From: Vezdaea acicularis
Lineage: Eukaryota
Assembly: GCA_026025075.1 (NCBI GenBank)
Contig: JAPEUI010000068.1
Span: forward strand, 62,001 to 97,504
Reading direction: 5' to 3'
Length of the DNA: 35,504 nt
In this document: positions 930 to 35,504 of the stretch, in pieces
Layout of the letters: each line of letters begins with the position of its first letter
Numbering within the stretch: the first letter of the stretch is position 1
Notes under the pieces: model-generated
What the model was told of the DNA's origin: nothing
Databases searched by the model: none
What the model saw: only the letters and a program-made list of their open reading frames with translations
Program-made: the position numbers and the translations under genes

Positions 930-1102
930 AGGGATTTACTGAGCGGCAGATAGATTTTGTAAAAAAGAAGGATCCTGCTAAAAGGATTGAGATTCGTGAT
1001 TTCATCGTCTATTGATTTCTGGCCTTCTGGGGTATAATTCTAAACAAGCCCGTTAACTCCTTCCCTTATGACATAGCGACAGCCACGGGTACGCCGCCCA
1101 GT

Positions 1103-1263: not shown

Positions 1264-1275
1264 GCTCTCGGATTT

Positions 1276-13142: not shown

Positions 13143-13339
13143 AGAGCATTTTGACAGTGGGAATATAGACTTTACGTTATGAGATGGGATAGACTGCATT
13201 AGCAAGCGTAGCATCGGGGTTTTTGTAGCATAAAACCCTCCACTAAAGCCGTCCTTTCAATGTTGATCAGATGGCTATATGAAGCCATGAATTACAATAA
13301 TTTTGCGGTATCTATTAATCCTAAGCCATGCAACAATAC

Positions 13340-15240
13340 CTACAACCCCCCAACGACCTGTCCCACGAGCCCCGCAACCTCCCCAAAGAAGACACTCTTC
13401 AGCACGGTCTCGACCTCGTTCTCCGCCCACATACCCCCGTCTCTTAACTTCTTTTCCCACCACTCGCGCTCTTTATGACCCAAATCCTCCCACTTCCTTC
13501 CCCTTTTCCCTTCAACGTGCTCAACTGCATGCACGTCTGCCTCAACGTCTCCTCCCTCGTGGGGAACGCTGATTAACACCGCGTGCTCCTTTTCCTCAAC
13601 GCCCTTCTCCTCGGCCTTTCCTAATAGATGGCTCAAGACGGGCGTAGCAGGGGCTTCATCTGATGGAGCAGATATATCGGGCATGACATTCTCCATAACG
13701 TACGGCCTAGCGATCCTTTCCTGCCATGCAGGGCTGAGCCACTTCTTTGCCTCTAGGTACTCCGGCGAACCGCCGCGTATCTCGAGAAAAGCCTGTAGCA
13801 GCACGGCGCCGAGGAGCACAACCACCAAGCTAAAGACCACGCTAAACACTTGCTGCGGCCCTTGACCTGGCGCGCTTAGAACGTAACGAGGGGTCCTTGA
13901 TCGCGGAGGGACGGGCGTGAGGGGCAGCGTGTGGACGGTGACAGTCCCAACAATGCCTACGGAAGCAAGCTTCAGGTGTTGCGGTAATGCGGCTTTGGCA
14001 TCAGTCGTAGAGGTATCTGGGAGGCGAAAATTCGAGAAGACGAGGGAGCCTACAGCGGAGGCATTTGAGGCTCGCAACAGGGGGAATTTCTTGAGATTCG
14101 AAATGCCGGACGACGCTTTCCAATCGAGCGTGTAGACCGCGACGGTACCATTTTTGTCACCTACAGCTATGACGAACTGTGATTGCGTCTGTGCGGAATT
14201 ATCCAGGATGCTGACATCGAGCGCGGTGGCTTTGCAACCAGTGTGGAGCCGCTTTCTTGCGATGATGTTACCGAGCTTACCTTCTTCAGAGCAGCAGAGG
14301 ACGAGGATTTCGGCGGCTTTCTTCCCTGGGTAATTTGCTAGGAGGAGGAGGAGATGTGGCTTTAGGAACCGCAACGAGCGGAATGATGGGCGGTCTTGAG
14401 GATTGCCCCAGAAATCTGGGTGTGGTTGCACGTAAACGACCAGTGGGTTCTCACTGGGCCTTTGTTTCTCGGCAGGATTGAATATCGATACTTCGCGCTC
14501 AGTACAATAGCAAGCGATTGGCTCGCCATCCCCATTTTTGTTGATGACGTCCACACCCCCGGCCTCGATGCCTTTTCCGAGTGAGAGTCTTGCTCGTTCC
14601 CTAACTCCATCTGGACCATACAATAAGCAAAGGAGTTCACCAGATGGAGCTAGGCCGGTGGCGAGGACAATAAGTCGTCTGGATTGACCTCGAGGCGAGG
14701 ATATACGGACAATTCTTTGATATGTTTCTTTTATTTTGGCGTCAGCGGGCCGGAACCAAGATTTACGGCTGAGCTCTTCTATCGTGCCTCCCAACTTAGC
14801 ACCCTTCTCATCCGGGGCTGAAGCAGCTTTGAGCGGTGGATATGCAACTTTGAAGGTGCGGAAGTGTTCGTTATTGCCTGCCTCCTGATCTGCGGTTGAC
14901 GAGTTGATGCCGGCGAAGACTGTGGCAGCACTAGCATCGAAAGATCTTGCAGTGACTAAAGAGGATACGGAATCTTCGCCGGAGGATAGCTCAATACTAG
15001 TAAGCTCGGAAAGCTCGGTCTTTGAGGAGGCGTCTAGGAGAGTCTATGTGATAAATTTGAAAATAAGCACGTGGACTCCCACAATGTTCGCATCAGACCT
15101 ACGATCTTGTTCTTTACTCCTGATTTACTCTCCCCACCCCCGCCTCCGACTAATAAGTATCGACTGTCCTCTTCGTCGAAGTCAACGCAGAAAAGAGGAT
15201 ACGACAGGTTCGCAGTCGCGCTTGGTATCGAAGGTGCCAT
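13340..15240 (-). CDS. SEC12: Sec12/PREB-like ER guanine-nucleotide exchange factor; exons 15240-15103, 15043-13340
   Basis: N-terminal YPLFCVDF..LLVGGGGGESKSGVKNKI (K-loop) spliced to TLLD..EDSVSSL..AGINSS..NEHFRTF. Beta-propeller-like body and a single TM segment VFSVVFSLVVVLLGAVLLQAFL. Intron 15102-15044. Confidence 0.85.
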
Positions 15241-15696
15241 ATTGCTAGCGATGCCGTTTTGCAGTTCAGGACTCTAAGACTGGTAGTGATAGCTCGCAGA
15301 AACGGGAAGCATGCTCCATCGATACAAGAGAGTTATTTCGCTGTTAAAGATATTGCGTTGGGCTGAAGAGCACCCGACGCGTTACCACTACGGTGGAGCT
15401 TGATGTCCTCAAAGTTTCAGATGGGAGATTTTGCGTTCGCCAATCGGAGAGCTTCACCGGACTCTCGCATAAAGATTTCGCCGAGGTCCCCTCGTCGCCA
15501 AGCATGGCGTTAACCTTTGACATGGGATATATGATAAACGGTAAAGAGTGCCAAATTTTGACTAAAAGGCCTTATTCCTATGGCGCACCCAATACAAATA
15601 TGGCTCACACCAGCCGTGCTATGCATCCCACCCATGCCCAACAAATGCTATCAAGCCATAACGCCCTAGAGCCTGCTAAATAACAATGCCGCAGCT

Positions 15697-17861
15697 TCAA
15701 TGCACTCCATTTCCATTGATTTGGGTATCTGCACCATTCTCCTCATCACCTATGTACTTGCCCATGAAGGTGATGTAATCGTATTGGGGCATTCCACGGT
15801 CTTGCTGGAGATCAGGTCCTTTGTGAGGAGGCATGGTCTTGAGGAGCTCGTCGATGACTTCATCAGGGACGAGAGAGTGGCGAAGGTCAAGCTCGGTGAC
15901 ATAGGGCTAAAAGCGTGTCAACATCAATCTAATGCTGTTATGGAAAGTTGATCTTTACCTTGCCATCAGCCACTTCCTGGAAGCTCTGGAATACTTGTTC
16001 TGCCGTATTCTGATCTTCGGTGACATCCACCATGAACCGAATGAATTGTTCAAAGGTAACATAATCTCGGCCACCACTTGTCTGATTAAATACTTCGTGC
16101 ATCTCGTTTTCGTCATAGACCAACCCCAGACTTGCGAGCGCTGCTGAGAACTCCAACTCTTGCAGGGAATTACTTAAGTCGCGATCAAAATGGCGGAACA
16201 CCGACTCGAATTCCTCGAGCTGGATTGGGGTAAGGTTTGTCATGTTTCGTGCAACCATTTGATTCTCAAGGAAGCTCAATTTCTTGGAAACGCTGCTCTT
16301 TACCAGGCTTAGCTCATATTCAAGCTCATCGTATGTGTAGGTCGTAAAGTCGTTCTCTTCAATATTGGCTTCCTCGCATTGTCCAGAAACCGCAGCAATA
16401 CTATCAAGATAGGCTTCGAGTGGCGGCAAGCTTTCGCTAAGACGTCGTACGTGCCGTAATTGATCCTCAACATCGCCTTCGAGGCCCGATATCGCAAGTG
16501 ATAGGGTGTTAAGTGTGATTGCAAAGTCGTTCGCTTTGTCGGCAAAGGTCCGGCGTAGGGCATTCTTGATACTAGGAAATTTAGTCTGGGAATCTCTTTA
16601 GTAGCGGTACAACTCACTCTCTGATAGTCTCGTTGATTATCTGACTCCTATTCCTTTCCGCCTTCATCAGTAATGCCCATACCCTATCTAGAGTCTCTAA
16701 ACTTAGTTCTGATGGCGGTTCGTACGGTCGTAACCGATACGTGCTCATCTTCGTCCTGATATTTCCCAGTAGGCCCTCCAGGTCACTTTTCTCTGTGACC
16801 CACTTTCGTTTCTGACTTCGTTTATACATGTTGAATTCGCCGGCCTGAACCTTGGCATCCGCGTAGGTGCCCTCGAACGTCGCTTGGTCCCAACTCTGCA
16901 TCTGCGCTTCAATTTGCTCCAGTAGATCCCGCACGCGCTGCTCGTATGAGTTTTGCATTCCCCAAGCGCCTTGCATATTCTGTACGAACTTCTCAACTCG
17001 GCGACCAGCATTTTCAACTCGCTCCATTTGTGAGAAGGCATGGAACCAGTATGCGATGTAGGTCATGAGTGAGCGTTCATCGGGCTTCACCACATCACAC
17101 ACATCTTCAACATCGAGGAGATCGGGGATACCAATCTCTTTAGAGGCGATGTCGAAAGCAAGCTGCATGTTGCCACGATGGTCGTTTTTGTCGAGTTGGT
17201 CGTAGTCAATTAGATCCGGACGATGAATATCCAGTAGCGCACAGAATGCTAGACCATCATTCCAACTCCCAGAAAAGTCCCGAACCTCAACTTCGTCATA
17301 GCATGCCGTCTTCCTTTGGCACCAGAGGAGTAGACCCTCCTTTGCCGTCCGACCCTCTTCGTTGATATCACTGATCGTGAATCGGAGAATGAGTGTCCAT
17401 AGAAGGCCTAGTATCAGCTTTTGGTTGCCATCAACAATGTCTTCTGCCCCAATATTTGTCGTATGGATCCCACGGAGTTTGATGAAGTCCAGGGCTTTAT
17501 TGACGTTCTCGAATTTTTGTACTCGCAATTTCGGCTTAGCAGCATATCGGCCTAGAGATTCGTTTCCAAGAATTTCAAGGAGGTGGACGAGTACGACCTA
17601 AGAACGGCTGTTCAGCTTTTTGAGGTTGCAATTGTCTGCTGTGGGCATCGGTTTGAGAGAATTGTCACGGATATGAGTGTTGCTTACGCCATCAGAAAGA
17701 TCCTTGACAAGGTCAGTGACAGCTAAGTCCCTGGACTTGAGCTTCGTATTAAGCCTGCTCATATCTCCAATCAACAATTGTACTCTACATAACCAGTTGT
17801 CCAAGCCCTACCATTTGGTGAACGTCTTCTGCTGCACCGTCACCCAACGTTGATCAGCCAT
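15697..17861 (-). CDS. ain1: Alpha-actinin (2 CH domains, spectrin repeats, EF hands); exons 17861-17812, 17754-17688, 17597-16618, 16571-15959, 15906-15697
   Basis: WVTVQQKTFTKWLN, DLSDGV.LVHLLEIL, NIGAEDIVDGN.KLILGLLWTLILRF, LLLWCQRKTACY, SWNDGLAFCALL and EF hand FRHFDRDLSNSL. Four canonical introns. Confidence 0.97.
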
Positions 17862-18130
17862 CCCCACTCCTCAATCATGGGCAATGCCGCCCCTGTAGGT
17901 ATACAAGTAATCAAAGTGACAAATATTTGATGAGACTCTAGTGGAGGCAGGGAATTTGTTTGTCAAATAGAATGTGAATAAGGAGGGGAATTTGCATACG
18001 TTTTAACAAGTGGAGACATTTAGCGAGACTATGTCAACAATGGCAACAGGATACCCCAAGCGACGCCAGGGGTCCGATAAGGTGAAGCGCGCCAGAAATA
18101 CACCCTTGGCATGCGGTTGCTGCTAAGCGA

Positions 18131-18185
18131 GCCCCTTCACGAATAGGCGGACGAAGCGGCTTCATCCGCCTATTCGTGAAGGGGC
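18131..18185. repeat. 55-bp near-perfect palindrome (27-bp arms, 1-nt centre, 1 mismatch)
   Basis: gccccttcacgaataggcggacgaagc-g-gcttcatccgcctattcgtgaaggggc. Confidence 0.97.
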
Positions 18186-18221
18186 CTCAGCCAAACACCC
18201 ACCGGATGAAGCCAGCGTCTT

Positions 18222-18962
18222 GCGCTTGAAGCGCGTGGCGCCCGAGCGTCGGCTTCCTCTTCGGTCGCGACTGGGCTTCCTGCGCTTCAAGCGCAAAGCG
18301 CCCGGACGAACCGTACGCCACTAGCCTTTCTGGGGCTTCTTACGCTTCAAGCGCATGAAGCCCCTATCATCTTAGCAGCATCTTGCGCTTGAAGCGCATG
18401 GCGCCCGAGCATCGGCTTCGCGAACGGTCGCGACCGGGCTTCTTGCGCTTGAAGCGCAGGAAGCCCAGTCGCGACCGTTCGCCACTGGCCTTTCTGGAGC
18501 TTCTTGCGCTTCAAGCGCACGAAGCCCTTATCATCTTGGCACCATCTTGCGCTTGGAGCGCATGGAGCCAACTTCCGTCCACTCGGGCTCCTTGCGCTCC
18601 AGGCGCAAAATGGTGCTAAGATGATAGGGGCTCCGTGCGCTTGAAGCGCAAGAAGCTCCAGAAAGGCCAGTGGCGAACGGTTCGTCCGGGCTTCTTGCGC
18701 TTGAAGCGCAAGAAGCCTGGTCGCGACCGAAGCGAGAACCGATGCTCGGGCGTCATACGCTTCAAGCGCAAGAAGTTCGAGTAGATGGAAAACCGCTGCA
18801 TGCGCTTCAAGCGCGAGAAGTTCGAGTAGATGGAAAACCGCTGCATGCGCTTCAAGCGCAAGATACTTCGTAGAAGATAAGGACTTCATGCACAAGAAGC
18901 GCAAGAAGCCCAGCCGCGACCGAAGGGAGAGCCGACGCTCGGGCGCCATGCGCTTCAAGCGC
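18222..18962. repeat. Long imperfect inverted repeat (fold-back) centred near 18577
   Basis: 18381-18569 pairs with 18586-18773 across a 16-nt loop. Outer blocks 18222-18290 and 18340-18397 pair with about 18898-18962 and 18847-18911. Confidence 0.92.
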
Positions 18963-19487
18963 TCCAAGTTCAGAGGGAAGCAAGAGCCACATGCGCTTCA
19001 GGTACAAGATGTTTGGACGAAAGTGAGGGTCCCATGCGCTTGAAGCGCATGTAGCCCAAGGAAACGCTCCGTTCCAGTTCTTCACTTGGCTTCTTGCACT
19101 TTAAGTGCAAACGGCCCCGACAAACGCACTGTTGCTAGTTATGGACGAGCTTAAAGCGCATCAAGGGCGTATAACCCAAGCTTCTGTTCTTTCTACGATT
19201 ATGACATGGCTACATACGCTTGAAGTGCATGTGGTTCGAGCAAACACCCTATTCCTTCTCTTTGCTTAGTTTCTTGCGCTTCAGGCGTATGGAGCCCGAG
19301 CGTACTCTCTTTTCTCGGTCATTAGCTGACCATATGTGCTTCAAGGGCATGGAGCCCGAGCAGACGCCCCCTCATGGTTTGCAGGATGATTTCTCTTGCT
19401 ATAAACAGGTGGAGCACTAATGGTTGCTCCTATACTTACTTGCTTTTGAAGCGCGCATTTTGATTATATTTGTTGCGCTTCAAGCGC
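18222..19487. repeat. Array of about 25 GCGCTT-N-AAGCGC dyads at 60/43/45-bp spacing
   Basis: Perfect copies start at 18222, 18282, 18385, 18445, 18506, 18637, 18697, 18802, 18847, 18950, 19036 and 19475. Degenerate copies start at 18342, 18549, 18594, 18757, 18890, 18993, 19096, 19156, 19216, 19276, 19336, 19396 and 19442. Confidence 0.95.
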
Positions 19488-19918
19488 GTGGAGTTGGTCA
19501 GCATCTTTCAACTTTCCGGGTAAGAGAGGCTTCATTTCTCAAGCGCTCTTTGCATGATGGGGCGGACATTAACTAAGACCTCCCAACGCATCTCAATTCA
19601 TCCTGGAGTGGAAAAGCTACAGGTCAATAAATTCGTTATATAGACTTAGCAGGAGTTTAATTCCAATTGGCGCCAGAATGAAATTGACAGCCTCTAGGCT
19701 CAGATTGTGATGACCCAACACGGACGCTATGTTCCCTTAAAATAGAGCATGAAACCAAAGCTCGAGAGAGCAACCTGATAAATAAGGAAAGCCTCATTGG
19801 GAAAAGCCCGTAACAGTTGAGGTCTTTTGAGCGTATTACGATCGTACTAGGCCCCTAAGCGTGAGAACTTTTGTTTGAATGAACGTAAAGAGACTGTTAA
19901 GTCTGAAAAGTCCTATCA

Positions 19919-21516
19919 TTATGAATCCTTGAATCATCAGCAAGTTAGCGAAATGCGTCAACTCTTCAATATCCCCAGACCCGTACATATGAAAGACCTA
20001 CCTGCGGCTTGTTCTCTAATAGAGCCAATTGCGTCTTAATATCTGCACAGCGATCTGTTAGACGTTTAGATTCCGCCGCAAGACGATCAGTCTCAAATCT
20101 GTACTTTTCCTCCTCGGCTTCTTCCCTTGCCTAGAATGTTTTAATTCAGAACTCAATTGAGACATGTGACAAGGCCATGGCCAAACTAACCTCGAGCTCC
20201 ACACAAAGTTGCTCGTAGCGCTGATCGAGTGCTGTTTGAAGGGCTTGTTGTCTTCTATCAGCCTCATCGAGCTCCTTTGTTCTCTTCTGTATGCCTTCAT
20301 CTCTTTGTCGCCGTCTTTCCGCTGCTGCGAGCTTAGCAGCTTCAAACCTCTCGCGAGCTTTGCTCATAACAGCGTCATTTAGCTTCTCAGGGCATGCAGC
20401 CACAGCTTCCTCTGATAAAGCCATATCTCTATAAGTGCGTTTCCGCTGCGCCTGGACTTCTTGAGCTTTTGTTGCCGTGCATTCTAACCCTCGCCCTATG
20501 GATACCTCGTCATCGACAAATCCCGTCGAATGAGTATCAACATCTATTAACGATTGATCGTGATTCCAAATTACTGATGATTGCCTGTGGTCTGTGTCAT
20601 CTAGCTGAGAATATTCTTCCTTGATTGCGCTTAATCTTGGGGTACTTGAGAAGCTGAAGTCTAAGGCATCTGCATTGTCCTGAAGACCGATGTCTGCAAG
20701 ACTTGCCAGTTTCCCTGGACTTGTATCAGTAAGTTGAACCCCGTAAAGCGAGACTTCTCAAACCCGAGTCTCTATAGAGGAAAATGAACTCAACCCACGG
20801 GCCATTTGGATCCCTAAGGTTTAGATTCTTTGGCATATTTCTTAACAATTTTCGTCTTGGACTCTCCGTTTTTGGGGGAGCTGGCACAAGGCTTACGTCT
20901 ATGTTAGTTTTATTGCATGATCTTGGAGTGAGACGATCTACCTGATCCAATGAGTTGGAGGCAGAGCCAAGTTCTCTTGGGAAGGAATAATCGATTTCCA
21001 GCATTCCATGTCTGTTACAGAAGGACGGCGGAGCTCAGTGCTATGTATTCCGCCTCTAAAGATCTGTATCTTTATCTCTCCTATGCCCGGTACCAGTTTG
21101 ACATTCTCTTCTTGTTGAAGCGGACCTTGTTATTCGTTAGCAAGATCTACAAACGATCCGATGGATATACCTGAAATTGGTTCGACAATCATATTGCATT
21201 CCACGGCAGCCCCCTCTTGATGCCTGGCATCATAACAAAATTCGAAATCTTTATTTGTGAATTTCCAAGTTGGAGCTTCGCTGCAGGAGAACATCGTAAA
21301 CCGAAGGACCCCATCAATACTAAAGTCCCATTCAAGAGTCTCTTTGGTTGCGGTCTTATAGGAGCATTTGAGCTTGATCTGCTCTTTTGATATTACTGGT
21401 ATGATTGAAGTGACCTTATGCCCATCGCGTGCAGAATGGTATTCATTGAGGATTTTATTATTGGCCAGCGCTTGAACTTTGACCGAAATGTTTGTAGTAT
21501 TGTCGTGGATATGCAT
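19919..21516 (-). CDS. DUF7918-like fungal protein with C-terminal coiled coil; exons 21516-21171, 21125-20942, 20891-20764, 20714-20191, 20130-20002 and a short last exon (stop at 19919, alternatively 19847)
   Basis: Five GT-AG introns link the fragmentary ORFs into one frame. Motif order ILNEY..DFSIDG..GEIKIQIFR..PTHWI..PWVEFIFLYR resembles DUF7918 from memory. The E/R/K/A-rich helical tail suggests a coiled coil. Confidence 0.7.
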
Positions 21517-22224
21517 CTTGGCGATCGCTTTGGTAGGGAACCTAGAGAGCTTGTCAGCGGGACAAGCTTCAAGTGAGATGAATAGAAAGAAGATTCTTAG
21601 TGAGATAAAGTGTAGGTCGCATACAGTGGCAATCCGCAGATACTTCGAACGTCAAATTCAAAGTAGGCGAGGAGAAATATCAACGCTGTAGCACTGGAGA
21701 TGAAATGAAGCCTTTGCACTCAAGCTCGACAGAATACAGGGGCCGCAGGAGAAGAGAGCACAACCGGCGCCGCAAGATTCAAGCCGAATTCCAAACTCAA
21801 CACTGACAAAAGGTGTTATGACTGCAGCACTGGCAGTGAAATAAGGACTCTTCTGTTTGAATTTGGCATTGAAAGGGATAGGAGTTGGTAATGCAGTTTG
21901 TAAAGTTGAGATAGGAGATCGGTAATAGGAACGCCGATAGTAGTTAGCACTGCCTTACGAGTTCTCAAATCACAAAAGGTCATGAGTGGAAACAGATCTT
22001 AAAATCATCGAGAAATTTTAAATCACACAAACAGGAATGAAAGACACGGCAAGGGACATCGGTATTTTACGTTCCATCTCACTACAGGTAGAGAAGTCTG
22101 ATAGTTCCGCATTTCAAGAAAACAAGTAGTTATATGCCCTGGAATGAGAGCAATCAATTTTTCTTTCTCGCATCTACTCACAGACCACTATTCTTCTCGG
22201 CCCCGTAAGCGCTGGGTGAGACTT

Positions 22225-22295
22225 GCGCTTCAAGCGCGTTGAGTCAAGTTGACATTCTTTTTTGTGAAGCCAAACTGCAAGCGCTTGAAGCGCTT
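22225..22295. promoter_or_regulatory. Two isolated perfect GCGCTT-N-AAGCGC dyads (22225-22237, 22281-22293)
   Basis: Same motif as the array. The second extends to the 17-bp dyad aagcgcttgaagcgctt. They lie about 700 bp upstream of the DUF7918-like gene; a regulatory role is inferred. Confidence 0.55.
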
Positions 22296-22462
22296 TGAGC
22301 GTCAAAACTGGCCACGATTTAACAAGGAGCTGCGGGAAAAGGATTTGCTTTATCCTTTTCTCTTACCACTGCACTCAACTTACTCAGCCCTCTGAGCCTA
22401 TCATCCCCACAATGTTTACTCATTCTCCCCATCTTTACGTCTGACAATCGGCCAAACCCGCG

Positions 22463-22908
22463 TCATTGTTTATCGACTCCTACAAACATGAGAGATGAAA
22501 ATTTACGAGGAAAATACGCGCAATCAACGTACGAGATGTGTTCATACATGTTCAAGCCCAAGGATCTACCGCTGGGGCTGGAACAGCAGTAGAGCGGTAG
22601 TGACAAACAGTGCGCTACTGGCTGAGACTGGCTGCCCATTGATCTTGTTGCTGTGAACACCTGTCCCGGAAAAGTGGATCGTATCTTTAAAGTCGCCGCA
22701 GTTGTGGTCGCGATACCTATTTGCACGTTGAAGAGGGGTTAGAAGGAATGAAAAGAGGAGATTAGAGGAAGATTTCATGGATGAAGTGAAGAGCTAGGGA
22801 AAAGGAGAAGTAAGACCAGTTGACCTGCAAAGCAGAAGCGCCATGTACAATTATTGCGCCAGCGACGGCAAAGGTGAGGAGGTATAGCGATTTGGATGGT
22901 GTTGACGT
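22463..22908 (-). pseudogene. Possible relic of a small secreted Cys-containing protein
   Basis: Signal-peptide-like (ACG)STPSKSLYLLTFAVAGAIIVHGASA, then LQVNW/YRDHNC across a putative intron 22816-22717 (weak donor, CTAAC branch). No ATG, and a probable later frameshift. Confidence 0.35.
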
Positions 22909-23645
22909 GTAGGTATTGGCGTTTCTTTGCGTCTGTTTAGTGGACTGAACTGGAAATTTGAGTACGGATTAGCATAGAAGCTGGTGATGCGATAGAGACA
23001 CAAATAAGTAGTATTGAAGCAAATGGGGCCTCCATTATTTATCACACGTCTACTGTGCGTGAGAATCCCAAGACACCTTGCCGGACCAAACTCTTCACGG
23101 GTCATATCATGGGTCAAGTGAGGTTGCAATGCCTCTGCTCCCAACGCCCAAGTCGCGAAACAATGCCCCATCCTCCTTGTCTTCCACAAAAGTTCCGTGC
23201 GATGAGACTCGTAATAGAAGCTTATTATCAATACGAGGTCTATGTTGCACGTGTTTCGTAACTCTGTCAGTATGGTAGAGGGTGGCATTAGCTAAAGGTC
23301 TTTAACAGAAAGTAGAATTACGAAGACGACTAGGAAAGTAACGTATTATACTCAAATGTTATAACATCTTTTTCAAAGTGCTTATTAGACTTTTGGTTTG
23401 ATGCAGGTGTTCTCCGCGTTTTGGGGACGTTTACACGCACAGAAGGACACTGAACAGAGAGCACTGGGTTGCTTGAAGAAAACAGGCATCTTGGATCCTG
23501 TAGCAGCTTCTAGACATCTTCAGATGGTTGGAAAACAATCGCCCGATCCCTCCATTTCTCAAAAACTTCCACTAGATAGACCTACTGTTAGTCGGCTATC
23601 GTTATTCCCATAATCGTGACAAGGATGAAAGATTGAAGACGTACC

Positions 23646-24026
23646 TTAAACGTTTGCGGCTACGTTGGCGGCCTCTTCTTCTCCATGATTGGCAAGGTCT
23701 TCGCCGTTGTCTTCGAGGATGGCTCGCGCCACTTCTGTTGTTATAGGGACACGATCAAAATCACGCTCCCAGACAGCAACGTTACCACCGCCGAGAACCT
23801 TTGCCTTGACGGCTGGAGTTGAAGTTGATCAACGAAGCGCCTCCAGAGTCCACATTGCAACCGAAGACTTTAAAGAAGTGATTTGGACTGTTCAAGCCCC
23901 TTCTCCAGCGAATGAGACGATTTCGTCGCCGTTGAACCTCCCGTGCAACTCTAGATACCCTATCCAATCGATAACGCTGCCCCGCTTCGAGGCTTTTAAG
24001 GCAGCCATAGTTACTTTCTTGAGGTT
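23646..24026 (-). pseudogene. Exon-like frame with two in-frame TGA stops
   Basis: After GCTAAC..TTAG: NLKKVTMAALKASKRGSVIDWIGYLELHGRFNGDEIVSFAGEGA*TVQITSLKSSVAMWTLEALR*STSTPAVKAKVLGGGNVAVWERDFDRVPITTEVARAILEDNGEDL...; stops at 23892-23894 and 23829-23831. Confidence 0.4.
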
Positions 24027-24226
24027 CTAAGGACAAAGAGTTAGCTTGGATATCTGGAGATCGGGTTTACTCATAATCGGCATGTTTGAAATACGTCGAA
24101 TTAGATCGATAAGTGATTGCTTACCGGCTGTCGTGGGTTGAATGCTTTGATAAGGTAGTTAAAGGTGGCTATATGTGTCTATCGGGTTGGTGAAATGCAC
24201 TAGGTTGAACATGCGTATCAATAGCG

Positions 24227-24363
24227 AGTGAATGCCGCTGCGGGAGTGAATGCCGCTGCGGAAGTGAATGCCGCTGCGGAAGTGAATGCCCCTGCGGAAG
24301 TGAATGCCCCTGCGGAAGTGAATGCCTCTGCGGAAGTGAATGCCCTTGCGGAAGTGAATGCCC
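24227..24363. repeat. 18-bp minisatellite AGTGAATGCC(G/C)CTGCGGA, about 7.6 copies
   Basis: Directly visible tandem units with stepwise variants. Confidence 0.97.
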
Positions 24364-27059
24364 AATATCACATGCGTTATCCACGTTACAATTTCTGTCC
24401 GCTAGGTAAGAGCCTTGAGACTCCGTACTCTCTTTGATGTGAAAGCTCCTTCAACCGAATTCGTGTATGCCCGTAGAGCTCTCGCCCATACTCAAATATT
24501 TCCCGATGTCAATGACCTTGAGGTGATATTTATACCCTTCTGTGATTCAATTGCATTCTGATGCCCTTTGTCGGAATGGCGGCTATCGACAACCGCCACC
24601 CATCAAACAATAGTTCCGCAATCCATACGGCGATTGGTGAGATAAGCAGGAGAGACGGAATTACTAAAAGCCTGAAAGACTTTTCCGGTGAAGTTGACCT
24701 GGTGCTGAGACGTCCTGAAAGTAACGCACTTGACGCGTTTGCCCTTTGTGACGCCTCAGGCCTGGAGCAAGCTGGCAATATGTAAAAGGAAAAGTTGGGA
24801 GTAAGAGAAGATGGTACTCTTAAAATGGACAAAGATAGGCCAAAGGCAACAAGCTGTTCTCTAAAAGTGAAAGCGGCTTAGCCCACTTCTTGCTTATGGT
24901 CAAGGTTGCCTAGACATTGCTTTAGCTGTCCTCCCAACAGAGAATTTTTCACACATTAAATGGCCCATATTTCTCACTTACATGTCCATTACCACAGCAG
25001 TCAATGCCCCACTTGCCTCCATCTATAGGTATGCTTTGTGACGTCCACTTGATCTTGCCAAGCAATTGGGTCCTAAGTAGCTACTGCCCTGTCAACAGTT
25101 TGGAATATAGAGATTTTTATAGGAGACTTGAATAAGCTCTTGAGGAGAGATAGTTATCTAAACTTTCCTTAATGCATATCCAATCAACCAGACAATATTT
25201 TTATCCGAGTTAGAGCCTGAGTTTGTGTGCCAGTAATGCCGTTGCATGTTTTACTTTGGAAAGACTTCAATGGCTCTTCTATCAGTCGGTATTGCTAGCT
25301 GATTTCCCAGTGTATTTGATGTATTGGAACGTATTTCAGAAGCTGAAGGTAAATTTGGTCTTTCCCGCGAATACTTTCTGGGTGAGAGAGAGCTTTAATG
25401 AGGTCGGAGTGGATCCTATGAAAACTTTCCCTGATTCAAGAACGTGATACTGGAGAGCTGTTCTTGAACCTCTTCTTGCTCCATCAAGCAGTATGGGGAG
25501 TGCGAGCGCACTAATTGCCAGTACATTATTTTTGACAAATGATGCGCCTTCATCCTCTAGCAAAAACGTATATGAAAATTTCTCAATGCTCTCGTTTTCC
25601 TTTCCGTAAAATTCTGCTGAAGCCCATGTGGTTGAGCTGATAAAGGAAGATGTGGTTCCGCGCTCTCGGAAGAGCTGGTGTAGTCACTGTAAAACCCCTC
25701 CTTCGATGAACACAACTAGTGAAAGTGCCAATCAGGAAGATTCATACCAAAGATAGTAGGTATGAGTTGTAGAATGCTTCCCATTTTACAGAAACCTTCC
25801 AAAGAGCCCACACAAGCATCTGCGCCTAGAGTCGTCAATGAACGACATTCCGTATATCAAACCTTTCAAAAATGATAGACATCTTGCCCCTGGTCTCAAT
25901 ACAGGGCAATCTCTCAAGCCTGGATACGTTCAGGTCCGAACAATTTTAGACCTGTGAGCGCTAGTCTCTTCATCATCGAGCGGTCTCTTACGCCCTAAAC
26001 TTCTCAGCTTTCGTCATTACCATGAAGCTCTAAACGCGTAGCGCATCTCCGCAAATTACTCAACAACAAGCCCGTTATCTACAACGCTCTTGCCGACTTT
26101 CAACTTGATCGTAAGCTAAACCTTTGCAAGACACAGACTTCAACCGCTTGACTAACAGCTTAAAGTTGCGATCTGCCATGGAGCCTAAACGATCTTCCCA
26201 CGCTTCTTGTACTCGACAAAGCTGTGAGTTTTTGATATCGAAATGGACTTCCAAGGGGAACTGTGATCTTTCAACGTCTTAAGTGGAGTAACTACAATCT
26301 TTCACCAAGAAAAGCAGCCCGCCACACGGAATCAGATACTCGTTGTTCTAGAATAACCCCCGGAACAGGGTTTCAGAAATTTGTAGTGCGCAATTCTAGT
26401 ACTTACAACAATATTGAAGATAGGAGCGGTCCAAACAGAGATGCTGTGGGAACTACAAAATGAGATGCGGCTGTAAGGCGGCTAATTTCGAGCTGACCTG
26501 ATCAGACATGGTACTTATTACTGCTTGCATGTTTAATGAGAAATGCTAGCTAGCTAACATACAACAACTGATTGCATAGCTTCAGGTTGATGAGATGTAT
26601 GAGCCTACACGGAAGCGTTCTAAAATCATGTCCACTTCTTTTGATCGGTAACTTCTTACGGACTAAGAATTCATAAGATCAATCTGACGTACTGATCTCT
26701 ATTTCTAGATCAAGTATACACGTATCATCTAGAAAGATCGTATACGAAGGGCGGGAGGATTAATGTGGAAGAATTCCACAATTGATCAAGGGTGTTGGAC
26801 AATGCAGCAATTTTGAGATATGCTCCTGTGGGTTACTAGAAGGTAGAGAGCACGTTATGGATGGACTACGCTAGAGGGAGCTAGACTGTATCTACAACCT
26901 TTTCCCTGTGTCATTTTCGGCCAGAGATCTACGTCGCCTTCTTGATAATCAAGTCGGTAATAAGCATGCTTTAAGCTTAAATCTAGAGAGTAAATCTCTC
27001 ATTCAATCGAGTAAGTACTCTTTGGGTTCGAAAGATTTATTGTATTGCATCTCCGGCCT

Positions 27060-27638
27060 TCAGTGAGTGTCTGATCTTGTTAACGATTCTTGTAGCACTG
27101 ATAACCGCTCCGCCACCAACTTGATCGCCCCTAAGATGATCTGAACGCAATACTTGGACTCGACAACCAACATGTTTCTCTGTGAATCATTACGTCCGAT
27201 GCTGACTAGATCAATGGTGTGTTGCAGGTATGCTGCTCCACAAGCAAGGTGTAGTGATGAGAGTTCGCCGTATGACATGCTGTTGTTGGAGGCATCATCT
27301 TGATCAAGTCGCCTCTGTATACTCTCTCCGATATTCTTTGATGATAACTGACCATCTAAAGAGTTCAACAAATGACTAAACATCTTTGAAAGATGGACCT
27401 AGTTACCAGTAGACCGATCATTGACGCCTTGCATGTCCAGAATTTTATCGACAAGTCGAGCAATGACAAGCACATCATCTTCGACATTAGATAGCTGCTC
27501 ACTCTTGCTTGCAGCGTCGTCGGTGAGTCGATTCATAGCTAGAGACTGTGGTTGAAGTGGTATTTGGAGTGTTTCTTGAGGTAAGAGCTTCCACTGTACT
27601 TGAGCTCGAAATAGGTTGACGTGAGCATGAACAATCTT
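27060..27638 (-). pseudogene. About 190-codon helical frame interrupted by one TAG (27399-27401)
   Basis: KIVHAHVNLFRAQVQWK...DDVLVIARLVDKILDMQGVNDRSTGN*VHLSKMFSHLL... continues in frame into ORF 27060-27383. Confidence 0.5.
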
Positions 27639-28581
27639 CTACGTTTAACAGGGCAAACTTGGAACAGCATACATTTCAACTATCGGCTCAGACCGCATTA
27701 CTCAGACCGTATTACTCGACTGTATTGACTTCATGTCGTTTTCCAAGCTACCTGTCGTTCACAAGACACGGCGCTCCTTATATCGCTTGGTCTCTAGCAA
27801 AGGCAGCAGAGGACTCCCATACGTTCAGCTTCTGTACCAAAAAGGCGCTTGCCTTTTATCGATTTAGGGGGTCATAGGAATGGTTGGACCCCCCAACTAC
27901 TCTGAATGACCAACTCTATCCAGCTAAGCTTTACGTCCAGCATTCAGCTTTTAGGGGTGGCGAGTAGTCCCATCACTTGTATCAGGAAATTAGTCCTTCA
28001 AGGGTTGGGACTGGAGGAAGTCGGCGAGTGGACGGTGGAGAGAATCACCAACCTCTTCGGCATGTGTGCCTAACCTCCCCGAGTTCATCGGGTAAGCAAA
28101 TAAAGCCACAAGGCCTTCCCGCCTTCCTACTACCAATCACAGGATGCAATGGCAGAGACATACCCTGGTCGGGGGTCTCGCGTAGGCGCAAATACGCTTT
28201 AGCGAGTGCACTTGAATAACGCGTTGGAATCCACGCTAGTAAGTCTCCTCCTAGAAATGACCACTTGTTAGTGACTGGCACGCACAGGAGATCACTCTCC
28301 CGTTGTGTTGAGTGAATGTTCTCTCGTCTAGAGGAAGGCGTGTACGCCTGAATGCATGACCAAGACCTGTGATGCTACACAGATTAGTACGTTTTGCCCT
28401 GTGAGTAACCACCTATTGACGACAAGCACATCTTAAGGGGAAACCCTCCTACGACGTCAGAATAATGACCCCATACCTCAACTAGATGTCTGCCAGGTTC
28501 CGTTGCAACCCCTTCTTGAGCGTCAAAACCGAGTCATTCCAAAGATCTGCATAATTGAGCATCAACTCTTTCGAAAGCATA

Positions 28582-29583
28582 ATGGAGCTTAGCGCTCCGG
28601 AATCATACGAAAACCATCCTCAACTCATACATGCTGTCGAAAAATTCCATGCGGACATTGAGAGTATTGCAGCGGATATTGAATTACCTCGTACTCGTAT
28701 CGAGGCTATTGCAAAGAAATCCTTGTCGGACATCTTCGTAAGATCTGCAAGAGGACCAAGTAGCTGGAACAATTTCGTTCAAGGGATGCAAAAGACGCTG
28801 CCCGGCAATAAAAAAGATTTTGGTCTAAACACACGTCACTTATCGACTCTCTGGCGTGGATTGTCACAAGAAGAAAAGGCACAATACAGACGTGGCCGAA
28901 GGACGAAAAGGAAATCGGAAGTACAGAACGCCCAGCTGCGACGTGTAGTCAACGATCTCCGCAGAAAGGTTGTGCCTTCGGCTTTTATGGATCTTCGTGC
29001 TGATTGATTTGCATAGGTGGATGAGATCTCCAAGCTTGGAGCTGACGCTCTGTTCTTTGTGTGCGACAACAAGAAACAAGGCCAAGGAGGTGGTCTTTCA
29101 AGCGCTTTCGGGTCGCCTCAAGCGGTTCGGTTTACTCAATGGATGGATGCGCACCGGGTCGGCCTCATTGACTTTAAGAGGTTTTGCAAGGGAGAGGAGC
29201 TCTCACTTAATCATCGTGATATCATAACTTTAAGAAGAACTCAGGACCCGCTTCACTCAAGGCATGATCAAGAGGAATTAGAAATGCTCTCTCGAGACGC
29301 GAGTCGGTCTCGCTTGAACGCAAGTTTGCTTGTAATGTTTAACCAGGCGGTAGAACATCATGACAAACTTTTGCGTCTCCCCCCAAAAAAGAGTTGGGCT
29401 TCGTGGATGGAAGTAAGAGGGCTGGAGCTTGTCATTGAAAACCCAAACATCACCAGATCTGACTTGGAAGAACGCTTGCAAGGAAAAGCCGGCGTTGCAA
29501 AGATGAAAACGATGATATCTGGCATTGAGAATGGTGAAATCCGCCTGCAAAACATTCGACGCGACCTTGGATCAAGCTCTTAA
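28582..29583 (+). CDS. HMG-box-like DNA-binding protein; exons 28582-28968, 29017-29583
   Basis: RGPSSWNNFV...LSTLWRGLSQEEKAQY followed by a basic tract RRGRRTKRK. Intron 28969-29016 GTTGTG..GCTGAT..ATAG joins the two ORFs in frame. Confidence 0.75.
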
Positions 29584-29649
29584 CTCATACCTTATCTTCT
29601 AAGTAAAATATGAACGGACAGGATCTGTAGTAGGCAGTAGCGGTACCTT

Positions 29650-30706
29650 TCATAATACAACTGCCGTCCGGTGATTTGAATAAATGACATCAGTGCTGTT
29701 GTTTGAATCCGTCAGCGTCGATGGATCAAATACGAAAGTTGAAAGGGTTGACACGTACGCACTGATTCTTGAGCTTGTCGTTTGAGACGAAGACTGTATT
29801 TGCGGAAGCCACGAAAGCGGAGCACCCAAGCCAGCTCCTTTATCTATTGAAGAACCAATGCATGAAGGATCGGAAAGCTTCTTTCTCAGCATTAAGACTT
29901 AACCCTTAGCCTTAACAGAATAACGTCTCGATAGTAGACGACGTTCGGCTCAAGGCCTTGATCTCGTTTCCTCTTTATGGCCAGGCCAGCCAGCGTGCGA
30001 AAAGACACCCAAGCCACTTTGAGCAGCCATTTCTAATTCAACAAAAATACACACCGTCAAAAACCTAATAGAGTCGTGAATAAGTGACTTCGAGGAAATT
30101 TTGGATGCCAAAGATACGTCAAATGAAAAAGATAACACATGTTTATCTCATAATCACTCATCAGAAGTGAAGATAATACATATCCCGATACCCACTCTTA
30201 AGTTCGTCATGGAAGGCCAGAATAAGGATTGCAAGATTTGTTCCCTGCCTTCTTTATTTGAATGAAAGGCACGGAGATCGGTAGGGACGTGTTTTCTGTA
30301 GGTGTGTTCATTATGCTGTACACAGTATTTGGGTAATCCAGAAGTTGGATAGTAACAGTCTCGTGATGTGTCATCTCCCGTCATTCGTAGGCAGACAGGG
30401 ATAGAAGCGATCAATTTGTCAATGGATATCAAGCGATTTTCTTTGAATGAGCTAGGTTGGATGCTATGTGAACATATCATGGCCTTACATTATCCTGATT
30501 CTCTCTATATCGACGATTGAAAAGTTGATATCTGCAGCATTGGAGAACATACTAGGCAAGGATGGAGTCAGAACCCAACGCGCTTGTCCCGTTCTAAGCG
30601 CATATGTGGCGTCTTCGACTCCGTTAAGCCACTCGCGAATATGTCTGGTGAAAACGCGCTTCAAGCCTGGAGAACGATCTTTCACCCGTGTTTGATGGGG
30701 AAACAA
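29650..30706 (-). pseudogene. Degraded gene: three co-framed ORFs separated by isolated stops
   Basis: ORFs 30480-30154, 30138-29950 and 29892-29650 share one frame broken by TGA, TGA, TGA and TAA. The upstream ORF 30706-30485 ends at a GTAAGG donor-like site. Confidence 0.4.
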
Positions 30707-31617
30707 TGCTAGCTCATTAGAGAATGGTGTCAGTGAATGTCAGATCTTATGACGCGAAGTGCTTTGATCGAACCATGTCGAATATTGCACGACTGCCATG
30801 AGGACAATAATCTTTTTCACCGTGAAGTTGACCATGACTGCGATGTTTTGACCGGAATTATCTTAACTTGAACGGGGCCAGAAGCTTTTGATAACTTAGT
30901 CTTTACCGATATGTGCAGTGGAGTATGTGACGAACCGTTTAAAAGGCTCACAATAAGCTTACAGATGACGAACCCAAGACAATGCAAGCCTTCTATGCAC
31001 CAGAGCAATTCTGTACATTGAGTTCTAGCTCTAAGAGAGCATGATCATCCTTGTCGATGATAAAAGTAGAGCTGATTCTCTCTATCGAAGCGTTCAGGAG
31101 TGAGGTCTAGGTTGGATGCAAACATTTTCCCCACAATTGATGACTATGAGGGCGCCAACAGCAGTACAAAGCTTGACAGTGGTCTTAGATGAGAAATAGA
31201 CGTGATTCATTCGTCTTCTGTGTAGTACCTTTGAGATTTTCCTTGTTGGGATACAGGTATGTAGAGGGAAAACAGTTAGATTGATAGTAGCACATCTGTT
31301 CTGTCTGCCCTTGCGAGATCTGTGAATTGGGTTTCACCAGTTTTTGCTGCAAGAAACTACCCTTAAAGTTGAGCTTTTTAGAGACGGACAACCTGAACGG
31401 CAAAGCTGCCAAATATCCTGCAACAAACTATTCCGATTGCACTTAGGATAGGAGTGTACCGTTTTGGTATGAGATTGAATGCTTTCAAGATGCGAGTTGT
31501 AGCTTTGTTGATACCTAGTGGGGGAATGCATCAGAGGATGAGTTGCCCTTTGGTTTTGATTTTGGGAAAAAACAACGAAACGGCTCATACATAAGGCCAA
31601 AGAGGGAGAGATCAGCT

Positions 31618-32593
31618 CTATGCTTTACGTCTAGTCCCACTTCTTGTGGCATGTTGCTTGGACAAGGTGCGTTTCTGCCTCTTTGGCTTGTGGACTTCGT
31701 CCAAAAGCTCCCTTTCATCACGTTCGGCATCCTCTTCAGCTCTACTGACATGTCCAGGCGTGTCTTTATCAGAATTGCCGTCTACTATACGTGAGAGTCA
31801 GATAAGGTTGGAACAAGACGATGTCAAAGTACTAACCCTGTTCATCGCGCGATTCCACGTTCTCACTCTCATCATCGCCCTTGCTGGGTCCATGATCGCT
31901 GGCCCCGTCTCTTTGGTTCTCGACGTTTGAACACGCATAACTAGATTCGTTGTTCCTCTTCCGTGCCTGCAAAGTAACCGGAGTCCTTCCGTCTCTGTTG
32001 GGTATGCTTGGGAGACGTGGTTTCTCATTGATGAGCTCAATTAACAGCTGCTTGTGTCGTTCCGTAAGCACTGGCATAGCCGCGGCTATGGCGTTTTTTG
32101 CCGTTAGATATGGCTTCGGGTCCTCCTTAGTGACAGTAAAGGGGGGCTTGGTATCACCATCCCAGGCTGAGCTGAACCATCGATTCGTCCATTTTGCCCA
32201 GAAGCGCTCTTGTCGGGTCTCCTGCTCGCAGGCATCCTTGGGTTCTGACTCGTCTTGCGAATCGTCCTGATCGTGTATTACACAGATATTGACAATCTGG
32301 AATGCGCCTGTTCTAGCAAATTCTTTACCATTGCTGTAAACGTGATTTTTGATCATCTTATCAAGTCCGCTTCTTTTTGCCTTATCTTCGCATCTCGAGA
32401 TGTCAAGCACATCCATCAAGTTATTCCAGTTCTTCGCAGCGTCTTCTCCCTTTTTTCCACAATCGGATTTCATGATCTGATCATGTTCGACCATCCACCG
32501 TGCAACAACCATTTCGATGAGAGGCGGTAACTTTTTCCTAGGTGCACCAAGGTCGACCTTCATCCACCAATATTCTTCTTGGACCGGCTCCAT
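31618..32593 (-). CDS. Orphan Trp-rich protein, paralogue A; exons 32593-31837, 31784-31618
   Basis: 253-codon ORF plus intron GTTAGT..CTGAC..TAG leading to an acidic/basic tail (KPKRQKR). Clear homology to the gene at 34106-35045. Confidence 0.75.
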
Positions 32594-33019
32594 ACCAGCT
32601 AACGCTCACCTATAATTGAAATCAGCATGAAAACAAAGCTGCAATAATTGTGTAGTAGTTCAATTCGACAAAGAAATCGCCTCCGTTCGTACGTTCGTAT
32701 GATTAGGCTTTGGGAGGAAGGGGGTCATGAGGGAGTTGGAGAGATTGAAGCACGCTAGAAGCGAATAAAGCGCTTGAAGTGCGCTTAACCGACGTCCGTA
32801 GCTTCCTGTCTGCATCAAAAGTTTTGAATTACCATCGTGTAGGAAACTGGTGGCTCTAGCAAGAGCTCAATTTTCACCTTTACAACCTCTAACACCACCC
32901 ATTCTTCCGTCATCATGGATGGGTCTTGGCATCTTGTCATAAATTCCTCTCAACTCCATCCATAAAACGTTGTTAGCATCTCTCAACGCTGGCCTTCTCC
33001 ATCTTCTGCCAACCTTGCA

Positions 33020-33668
33020 ATGGCTACTGTAACGCAGGAAAGACTCCTGCTAGAGCAAGAATTCCTCCCTGCACCAGGCAGTGCAGGAGCCAAAAAAATC
33101 GTCAGGTCTATCGGAATCGATCGAAATATCTATGAGAAGTATTACAACGAGGTATATATGCAACTGATAGCTCGCTCTTCGTGGCAGCTAACTGGATATC
33201 AAGCGTATTCATTCCAATCTCCTCAGCCCTCCCAGAACAACATTCTCGCCGACGCCGACCTTATTCTCCCAAGACCCATGGCGATCGCCATCAGCGACTA
33301 ATGCTGATTGGACTGAGCACGATGCAAACAGGTTGAGCGTCGTTCTTGCCATGGCGCGAAAGCAGGGCGATCTGGAGTTCGTTCCCAAGTCATCGCTGGT
33401 ATGCCATACCATCCCGGAGATCAAAGCCGCTGTCGACGATATCTGTAACGCAATAATAGCAGGCAATAAGGACAGGAGAAGGATTGCGGAAGTCAGAAAA
33501 TCTAGGGCAGGTATAGCCAAAGAGGAAAGACTTCGGCGAACACGGAAGATTGTTGAAGAGGGCCATCGATTTATCGGGATGAACGTAAGAAGATATCAAC
33601 AATGTAGGCTCAGGTCTCTTCTTAAAGGCGAAGTTTCTAGATCAAGGATCTCCAGTGCTAGACATTGA
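33020..33668 (+). CDS. Orphan basic protein; exons 33020-33151, 33204-33668 (3' end uncertain)
   Basis: Intron 33152-33203 GTATAT..GCTAAC..AAG joins ORFs 33020 and 33333 in frame; R/K-rich helical C-terminus. Confidence 0.6.
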
Positions 33669-34105
33669 AGCCTGTATCACGTACTGGCGTAACTTGGAGT
33701 AAACTTGCTTGGTTGTTTCTCTGAAATAGACCATCAAAAGGATGGCGATGCAAAGTCCTCGTATCTTATTTGTCTGGATCCGCGAGTAGATATCGGGTTT
33801 GCTGCAGGTGTTCTCATAATACCAATAGTCGATAATGGCATTCCAATTGCTCTACAATGAAGCTCAAAACGCGCACCAATTCCTCCCGATAATAACGTAG
33901 TAATGACATTCATCCTATTCAACTTGAGTCGCTTGAAGCGCTACATGTGTGCCCTACCCATAGACAAGAACGATCACGTGACTGAAGCTCCTATCATCGG
34001 TTATTCTGATATAAGCAGCCCGCAATTAAAGGGCCTTGTTCTCTTTGAGCAACTTGATTGATACAATTATCCTGAGCACGGTGTTTTCAAACATTATCAC
34101 GCGCG

Positions 34106-35045
34106 ATGGTAAGGCGTTTCCTGACTCCCTTCACGTTCTTTTTTGGCTGAACTCTACTCATGTTATCTTGGAATCAGGCCGAGAACAGAGTTGGCTCACC
34201 CCTAGCAATCTCACGAGCACCAAACAGCCCGCCATCACGCGAATCATCCGAGGAAGGATTGTCGTTCAAGGTTCATTAAACGATCTTTAGTAGTTGTTAT
34301 AAAGTACTGATATTATATTCTGCAGCCCTTAAACTCAAAGCGATCTCTGAACGAAAGGCGAAGAACTTCTTCCGATGAAGATGGGTCTGGCGCAGGCATG
34401 GAAGCACCCAGCGTCGTGAAGAAGAAGCAATTAAACAGGGAGAGCCAAATAATTGTAAGGAGGTGGATGGCTAGGCATGATCAAACTCGGAAAACGGATT
34501 GTGGAATATATGGTGAAGATCCTGGAAAGAACTGGGAAGAGCTCTTTTGGGAGCTGGGCTATAGAGGTAGGGTGCCCCCAGATGTGGATGCGAAATATCG
34601 CACATACGTTCGCAATGAGGGCAATCGACTTGAGGCCAAAGGAGTTTTTGTGAGGGCGGAAGTCCCTGATGGAGAGGGACGGCTTAAGGCCAAGGAAAAG
34701 CGGATATGGAAATCTTGGACAAAACTTTGGGAGGAAAAAGGCTGGGATGGAAATACTAACCCGCCCCAGCTCACTGTCGAGGGTGTCAAAGTTTCCATTC
34801 ATCCGGCTATCCGCCTCATGTCCTATTCAGAACGCCATGCTTTGGTCAAATGGATATTGGATGTTGGTGAATGTCCTCCAACCACATCATCGGACGGGGC
34901 GAACCAAAAACGAACGGTTCTAGATGCTTTTCACGAAGACCGGATCGCGAGCGACTGCTTGTTGTCTCTTTCGAGTTCTGCAACCAGCGAAAAGAGGAGG
35001 CGAATCGTTATACCAACTAGTCGAGTTCCACAGCGTTCACGATAA
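34106..35045 (+). CDS. Orphan Trp-rich protein, paralogue B; probable exons 34106-34108, 34178-34270, 34326-35045 (core ORF 34398-35045; both ends uncertain)
   Basis: Shares RWM..HDQ..K.DCG..GED..KNW..L and W..WT..W....WDG.T.PP with paralogue A. Upstream GT-AG introns preserve the frame. Confidence 0.75.
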
Positions 35046-35346
35046 CCCCCAAAAGCCCATCAACGGCAAATCGACCTCCGGCTCCACCACGGTCTTATCC
35101 TCGACCTCGACCTCGACTGTCGGGGCGGGGATCAAAAGTATTGCTGTGACAAGCACAAGCGTGAGCGACGGGAAGGCTGCAGCGCCAGTTTTTAAAAGAA
35201 AGAAGAGAGTTTTGGGCCTGAATGTCAGGGCAAGATGTACATCAATAGAAGGGTACCTCGTCGGCCAGGACGAGTGCCATCTTGGTCTTGGTCAACGCCG
35301 TCCCTATTTTTCCTACCTTTCCTATCTCTTCGGTCGTGCTCTCAAC

Positions 35347-35504
35347 GTCCAGTATCTCTGTCGTCACTGGCTCTGTTGTCACTGGCTCTGTCGTCACTGG
35401 CTCTGTCGTCGCTGGCTCTCGAAGTCCAGTATTTCTGTTGTCGCTGGTTCTGTGGTCGCTGGCTCTCGATGTCCAGTATTTCTATTGTCGCTGGCTCTGT
35501 GGTC
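35347..35504. repeat. 15-bp tandem CTCTGTCGTC(A/G)CTGG nested in a 47-bp higher-order repeat; runs off the window
   Basis: Visible 15-mers; the GTCCAGTAT anchor recurs at 35347, 35424 and 35471. Confidence 0.9.

Follow-up and report, generated by a model that had tools for sequence, protein, structure and literature searches.

An array of palindromic dyads as the subterminal repeat region of a KDZ, Dileera-like transposon whose insertions cluster near E-boxes

KDZ transposons are a little-studied group of large, cargo-carrying elements that are mobile in fungi. Here we describe an array of palindromic dyads in a 35,504-bp stretch of DNA from Vezdaea acicularis (the window), and the 25,188-bp transposon to which it belongs (the window element). 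The window forms the end of contig C281 in a fungal assembly of 18.9 Mb and 315 contigs; positions are window coordinates unless another contig of the same assembly (C87, C226 and so on) is named. As far as the accessible parts of the sources cited in this paper go, the Cryptococcus elements KDZ1-3 measure 9–11 kb and combine CxC1 and terminal repeats of 139–241 bp with extra genes (PMC11343200, PMC12139950). With these, and with the Dileera elements of Puccinia and Melampsora, the window element shares a PF18758 transposase, an 8-bp duplication, long terminal inverted repeats and extra genes without assigned function (PMC11343200, PMC12139950). Dileera-1_PTrit starts with CACCCC and Dileera-2_MLP with CACCTC (PMC12730594, supplement). 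KDZ consensus sizes run from 9.8 to 24.4 kb in 17 of the 51 rows of the same supplement, and a Chlamydomonas Zisupton reaches 31.7 kb (PMC9977147), so the size of the window element is not new. In the literature searched, outside which lie most subscription journals and the Repbase reports, no binding site or target rule is given for KDZ transposons, and we found no report of KDZ subterminal binding sites or of E-box-linked insertion.

The element and its subterminal array

A cut-and-paste DNA transposon of the KDZ, Dileera-like kind has its left end here, and the array is the subterminal repeat region of that end. Similarity to other loci starts abruptly at 18101, where the left terminus begins CACCC, and the left 17,404 bp of the element (18101..35504, plus strand) occupy the window from there to its end. 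Window positions 35378-35504 and C87:1-127 form a 127-bp overlap of 100% identity, and the element continues through C87:128-7911, which holds the transposase, a kinase-like gene and the right end, where an inverted copy of the array finishes at C87:7911. The terminal inverted repeat (18101..18650, plus strand) is 99% identical to the right end over its first 140 bp and 88% identical over 550 bp. The 8-bp target-site duplication CAGAAATA lies at 18093..18100 (plus strand) and recurs immediately beyond the right end at C87:7912-7919. An empty site was found in three of four metagenome runs (one study, contigs only): the contig departs from the window at 18101 and resumes with the right-hand flank, the 8 bases being present once. 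In two of these three runs the interior of the element is present as well, 30 of 30 bins being covered. Such presence/absence polymorphism indicates past insertion, and the element is recently inserted. Among the analogies drawn in the preliminary description, that with transposon subterminal repeats was therefore the right one, given the inverted second end, the 8-bp duplication, the KDZ domain of the transposase and the empty allele.

The window element is one of a family. Its terminal 17-mer, CACCCT-NRR-CATRCGGT (18101..18117, plus strand), occurs at 26 places in the genome, 25 of which are ends; a terminal-motif match with one mismatch at C294:258848 was not counted as an end. Through 8-bp duplications, 18 of the 25 ends pair into nine elements at eight distinct targets, pairs across contigs resting on the 8-bp match alone except for the window element and C294/C1, where the contigs overlap as well. 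Several copies of non-coding derivatives of 1.5–1.7 kb, 85–98% alike, have kept the termini and the dyad arrays at both ends. The first dyad starts 120–122 bp inside the element in all 18 measurable ends, the other seven stopping at contig ends at 125–127 bp. A second element (C226 and C147, joined via an exact overlap) carries the same transposase, kinase-like gene and HMG-box-like gene and several unassigned genes. A degenerate end that has no terminal 17-mer lies at about 83700-83890 of C79, and isolated perfect dyads with no recognised end beside them occur at C68:92102 and C250:308416. A terminal-motif scan of metagenomes for independent insertion sites returned at least 118 stretches; none of the 118 has two or more dyads inside, and all were accordingly treated as chance matches.

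On the minus strand of C87, positions 1191-3281 hold a 697-codon open frame with an uninterrupted KDZ domain (PF18758, 137.6 bits against a cut-off of 26.6, E 6.4e-40), one of two KDZ genes in the genome that are 67% identical to each other, and the transposase is apparently intact. Across 13 aligned proteins D230 and E284 are invariant and D114 nearly so, and we take these acidic residues to be the catalytic residues of an RNase H-like core. In the predicted model (pLDDT, the confidence score, 77) the closest folds are two DDE transposases, ISCth4 (Z 9.0, root-mean-square deviation 4.5, 226 residues aligned) and Tn5 (Z 8.4, deviation 5.9, 228 aligned). Two consecutive exons upstream of the KDZ domain match adjacent parts of CxC1, the cysteine cluster that lies N-terminal to KDZ in Dileera and is a KDZ/Dileera feature (PMC11343200, PMC12139950), weakly and under the cut-off (E 0.043 and 0.046); a relative of 38% identity matches CxC1 at E 2e-11, but also CxC2 at 1e-7. 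For CxC4/SWIM there was no Pfam match on the transposase exons at E<=10 nor on other frames at E<=0.01, a search that short exons could escape.

The preliminary description had listed 22 start-to-start spacings, of 60, 43 and 45 bp with a single 61, for the motif GCGCTT-N-AAGCGC from 18222 onwards, and this list is correct as given. Measured against that core, its 23 positions comprise 11 exact copies, three with one mismatch, six with two, two with three, and one, at 19396, that is only a remnant with six. The subterminal array accordingly spans 22 dyads at 18222..19348, with no strand, its first core 122 bp from the end; beyond the remnant lie extra cores at 19442 and 19475, the latter perfect and out of phase with the array, which shows a higher-order period of 163–164 bp. 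At one mismatch or fewer the window contains 20 core matches, where shuffles lead one to expect 0.12: 16 within 18222-19487, four deeper in the element and none in 1-18100. A genome scan, as the preliminary description had proposed, found 99 exact dyads against two for the reversed control motif.

The 13-bp dyad first described as the conserved unit is real, but the palindrome around it extends to 31 bp, GGGCTTCTT-core-AWGAAGCCC. Alignment of the units, likewise proposed at the outset, showed the cores to be more conserved than the spacers: in the six distal 60-mers (19036-19395) pairwise identity is 77% in core columns and 45% in mid-spacer columns (p 5e-4 by permutation, taking the best of 60 circular placements). 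This difference, together with the constant position of the first core in every measurable end, supports the proposed constraint on the site itself. The distal spacers are homologous and in register, with 45% identity at shift 0 and 24–30% at shifts 1–4. Their reported divergence at an exact 60-bp phase is borne out in that no indels occur over the six diverged 60-mers; the distal cores, however, have decayed as well, with two mismatches each from 19096 to 19336.

Insertion near E-boxes

Insertion in this genome is biased to a distance of 15–18 bp, centre to centre, from the E-box CACGTG, a common motif of transcription factors. Targets were counted in 23 flanks, C1:331 and C294:1505 having been dropped as duplicates of the C244 target, and in six of these an exact CACGTG starts 22, 23, 23, 24, 25 and 25 bp outside the end. 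The hexamer occurs 2805 times in 18.95 Mb of genome (1.5e-4 per base) and nine times in 20,683 positions of the local flanks (4.4e-4). The binomial probability of the peak is 4e-15 at the genome rate and 3e-12 at the local rate; a 250-fold correction for post-hoc choice of the window raises these values to 1e-12 and 7e-10. When all 4096 six-mers were placed in all 4-bp windows from 9 to 56 bp out, three or more matches were reached by CACGTG and overlapping words only. Counted by insertion site at 22–26 bp, CACGTG is exact in 6 of 15 and within one mismatch in 11 of 15, whereas 168 control windows from the same flanks averaged 0.05 and 0.35 such sites and never exceeded 1 and 3; two pairs of sites are paralogous targets, and merging them gives 5 of 13 and 9 of 13. 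Since it is present in the empty allele, the E-box belongs to the target.

One target was used repeatedly. The elements at C244:140765 and C294:1505/C1:331 share the same duplication and have flanks that are 90% similar. A paralogous copy of this target has the same one-mismatch E-box, and there the element at C269:96398 lies on the opposite side of it. A complete 1.5-kb derivative at C60:33234-34745 is flanked by exact E-boxes, 23 bp from one end and 24 bp from the other, and has no target duplication; recombination between copies, or a join made in assembly, may have produced it.

How the bias arises can be explained in two ways. The transposase may read CACGTG directly, or use nucleosome-free DNA beside promoters bound at an E-box, in either case without contacting a host factor, and we put the chance of this close to even. 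The motif lies on either side of the duplication, as such a mode of insertion would allow, and the roughly threefold excess of E-boxes in the wider flanks over the genome shows that insertions favour E-box-rich regions generally. Open chromatin alone, however, would not yield a peak only 4 bp wide (six matches at 22–25 bp, four over 26–60), and direct readout, on general reasoning, usually gives one fixed spacing, where here it is 15–18 bp. The other explanation, for which we would claim somewhat less than an even chance, is tethering by a bound host factor of the basic helix-loop-helix (bHLH) class. The genome encodes seven bHLH proteins, among them one clear orthologue of yeast Cbf1 (E 7e-19). 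Cbf1 binds CACGTG, and would be our first choice for the factor that causes the bias.

Candidate roles of the dyads

Taken as a whole, the best explanation, and a probable one, is that the dyad array provides the binding sites by which the ends of a KDZ transposon with E-box-biased insertion are paired. In this view a dimer of a protein encoded by the element, most likely the KDZ transposase, would bind each palindromic dyad. Binding by some dimeric protein of the element is very likely, and there is good reason to think that this protein is the transposase rather than an accessory product. Loaded on many dyads, it would be gathered at both ends, which could then be paired across 25 kb. Cutting would take place at the terminal CACCC, 120 bp outside the first dyad, and staggered joining, a chemistry borrowed from DDE transposases, would produce the 8-bp duplication that is observed. 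Dyads in intergenic DNA might also let the same protein regulate the genes of the element. More tentatively, and appreciably short of even odds, we propose that this KDZ family is steered to promoters by a Cbf1-like host bHLH factor, inserting 15–18 bp from the centre of CACGTG, and that a single palindromic site serves its own protein in end pairing as well as in cargo-gene control.

Five internal dyads at one mismatch or fewer (22225, 22281, 32770, 33929 and C87:4389) all lie outside long open frames. Two perfect copies (22225..22293, no strand) are intergenic, upstream of the minus-strand gene 21133-21651; a third (32770..32782, no strand) lies between two divergent element genes and is aligned with a dyad of two mismatches at the corresponding point of the second element (C226:623); a fourth (33929..33941, no strand) precedes the open frame at 34311 by about 380 bp; and C87:4389 is upstream of the transposase, as is a dyad in the second element. 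One gene common to both elements has upstream dyads in the window element only, so the association of dyads with genes is partial. The second element also has an internal tandem dyad array (C226:2222-2729) with a higher-order period of 143–147 bp, and to link this and the 163–164-bp period to nucleosome length would be speculation.

It is possible, though unlikely, that the dyads are bound for activation or anti-silencing by an accessory product of the element, either the HMG-box-like protein or another conserved cargo protein of unassigned family, in the manner of VANC in VANDAL and TnpA in Spm, and that the transposase is not the main binder. The internal intergenic dyads and the tandem array of the second element would fit such a role, VANC targets form tandem repeats (PMC5735166), and several cargo genes are conserved between the two elements. 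These include the kinase-like gene (C87:4586-5620); one or more genes of unassigned family at 20149..21651 (minus strand), 29–55% identical by exon at the amino-acid level and with no Pfam match at E<=0.01; and an HMG-box-like gene at 28555..29583 (plus strand; HMG box E 0.008, under the curated cut-off; 51% and 69% identity). A further cargo gene of unassigned family (31835..32605, minus strand) has a paralogue at 34311-35045 (plus strand), both with relatives in other elements (58% and 61%); neither protein has a Pfam match, and an Atlas search with the 31835-32593 protein gave no usable match. A short coding region at 23649-24027 is duplicated inside the element at C87:393-731 (about 49% amino-acid identity) and occurs in the second element too. 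The constant offset of the first dyad and the dyads kept at both ends of non-coding derivatives fit end recognition instead. A Pfam scan of 95 element frames found no TET/JBP or other chromatin domain, and a skew like that of repeat-induced point mutation is absent from the element (TpA/ApT 0.70–0.77 in 18101-35504 and C87:1-7100, compared with 0.71 in the host part of the window).

Proximal spacers fall into five sequence types of fixed length, two of 60 bp, one of 43 and two of 45, which occur in both orientations, forward in units 1–7 and largely reversed in units 8–14. In the proximal units, a few spacer types set between palindromic cores were duplicated and inverted as the array grew, and the quantised lengths mostly reflect this process. 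Other subfamilies have other spacings, of about 64–66 bp, mostly 66 bp in the 1.5–1.7-kb derivatives and mostly 63–65 bp at C269:96398 as against 60/43/45 in the window element. What survives of the proposed constraint on spacing is the lack of indels across the six diverged 60-mers, and it argues only modestly for selection on length. Helical phasing was rejected on arithmetic, 43, 45, 60 and 66 bp not being whole helical turns.

A neutral minisatellite, amplified in the terminal repeat by slippage, inversion and gene conversion while the terminal 120 bp alone matter, would also produce quantised lengths from spacer types in both orientations; palindromes promote inversion, and the distal cores are decaying. 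We nevertheless regard this as very improbable, because the cores are more conserved than equally old spacers and because the same core is kept in subfamilies with other spacers and as isolated internal copies, five in the element compared with 0.12 expected per window. That the array is a replication origin or enhancer repeat akin to iterons or baculovirus hr sequences, as the remaining analogies of the preliminary description had it, is supported by nothing in the analysis beyond its palindromic cores and a nearby hairpin, and has a negligible chance of being right given the location in terminal inverted repeats with target duplications, the DDE-type transposase, the empty allele, the hairpin's lack of conservation across subfamilies and the lack of any replication gene among the element frames scanned with Pfam.

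The hairpin itself is a 55-bp palindrome at 18131..18185 (no strand; z -8.8), with z of -4.0 to -6.5 in the 1.5-kb non-autonomous family and -1.8 to 0.1 in other subfamilies; lacking conservation in all subfamilies, it was rejected as an origin or essential structure. At the C269:100644 end its loop is inverted relative to other copies of the 1.5-kb family, which indicates flipping between the arms.

Several observations weigh against the explanation that we favour, in which the transposase binds the dyads, pairs the ends and inserts near E-boxes. Spacing is not the same in all subfamilies, nor at the two ends of the element (23 positions on the left, 14 on the right), so there is no strict geometry past the first site, and one subfamily end (C66) has a single dyad cluster. 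The transposase fold match is of middling Z, with no Foldseek match at E<=0.001, and several conserved accessory genes could encode the dyad binder instead. Seven of the 25 ends have no partner, and the C60 derivative has no duplication. Four of the 15 sites have no E-box within one mismatch, and the target rule comes from 15 sites in one genome with a 22–26-bp window picked after seeing the data.

Outside the element, positions 8341-17597 hold ordinary host genes, for a TPR protein, an MBOAT protein, a guanine-nucleotide-exchange-factor-like protein and an alpha-actinin-like protein with CH and EF-hand domains (15938..17597, minus strand), in whose upstream region the element sits. For a host protein beside the array the best named relatives, at about 42% identity, come from filamentous ascomycetes, lichen-associated ones among them, and on that ground we place the host among the filamentous ascomycetes. 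Tandem repeats of 18 bp at 24227-24363, of 15/47 bp at 35356-35504 (across the contig overlap) and of 19 bp at 1097-1262 were also noted, and 24532-24663 and 32142-32181 match other metagenome contigs with loose ends on both sides, which suggests captured or shared fragments.

Comparison with known systems

With terminal inverted repeats and an 8-bp duplication the window element has two features of Dileera elements, and the 8 bp seen at nine elements lie within the 7–8 bp of KDZ target-site duplications. The KDZ catalytic domain and large size are shared with Zisupton and Kyakuja. Kyakuja_LB, however, is given 7-bp duplications and no terminal inverted repeats in the accessible part of its source (PMC12730594), where the window element has 8 bp and 550-bp repeats, and Cryptococcus Zisupton carries CxC4 and SWIM (PMC11343200), neither of which was found here in the searches described above; both differences set the element apart from those groups. 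Membership of CACTA/EnSpm was rejected: the CAC terminus is common to both, but the duplication is of 8 bp rather than 2–3 and the transposase is KDZ. Compared with the Cryptococcus KDZ1-3 and Dileera elements, the window element has a 550-bp instead of a 139–241-bp terminal repeat, a dyad array, 1.5-kb non-autonomous derivatives and E-box-linked insertion, and no TET/JBP cargo was found among its frames. Its host is a filamentous ascomycete, whereas the accessible part of PMC5751038 lists KDZ in Basidiomycota, Rhizophagus, Mucoromycotina and Allomyces and not in ascomycetes.

We regard the element as belonging to a new Dileera-like KDZ family. Its subterminal array is an expected kind of feature, though no KDZ description of one was found in the literature searched; some KDZ consensus 5' ends show repeated short motifs by eye, in the first 400 letters of each and as an unquantified impression. 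The TnpA motifs of En/Spm (CACTA) and the VANC arrays of VANDAL, family-specific motifs that cluster at termini or in non-coding DNA and are bound by a protein of the element (10.64898/2026.08.24.746577; PMC5735166), may serve as the nearest models for the motif clusters. Those transposases belong to unrelated families, and the motif here is a palindrome with a putative binder. With this defined palindrome, placed at a constant distance from the end that is cut, the window element offers a candidate site for such binding. It also brings a transposase that is apparently intact, a target rule and, in the small derivatives of its family, natural non-autonomous substrates. Leaving targeting aside, it is a well-resolved new member of the KDZ superfamily in a host group with few reports.

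The target bias is the surprising part. Insertion is placed by a host DNA-bound factor in Tf1-Sap1, Ty3-TFIIIB, Ty1-AC40 and Ty5-Sir4 (PMC5371812), but these are long terminal repeat retrotransposons with tested interactions, whereas the window element is a cut-and-paste DNA transposon with a conjectured tether. If insertion does follow E-box-bound host factors, elements of 25 kb would be placed straight into promoters, here upstream of alpha-actinin, and the family would provide a DNA-transposon parallel to the factor-tethered retrotransposons.
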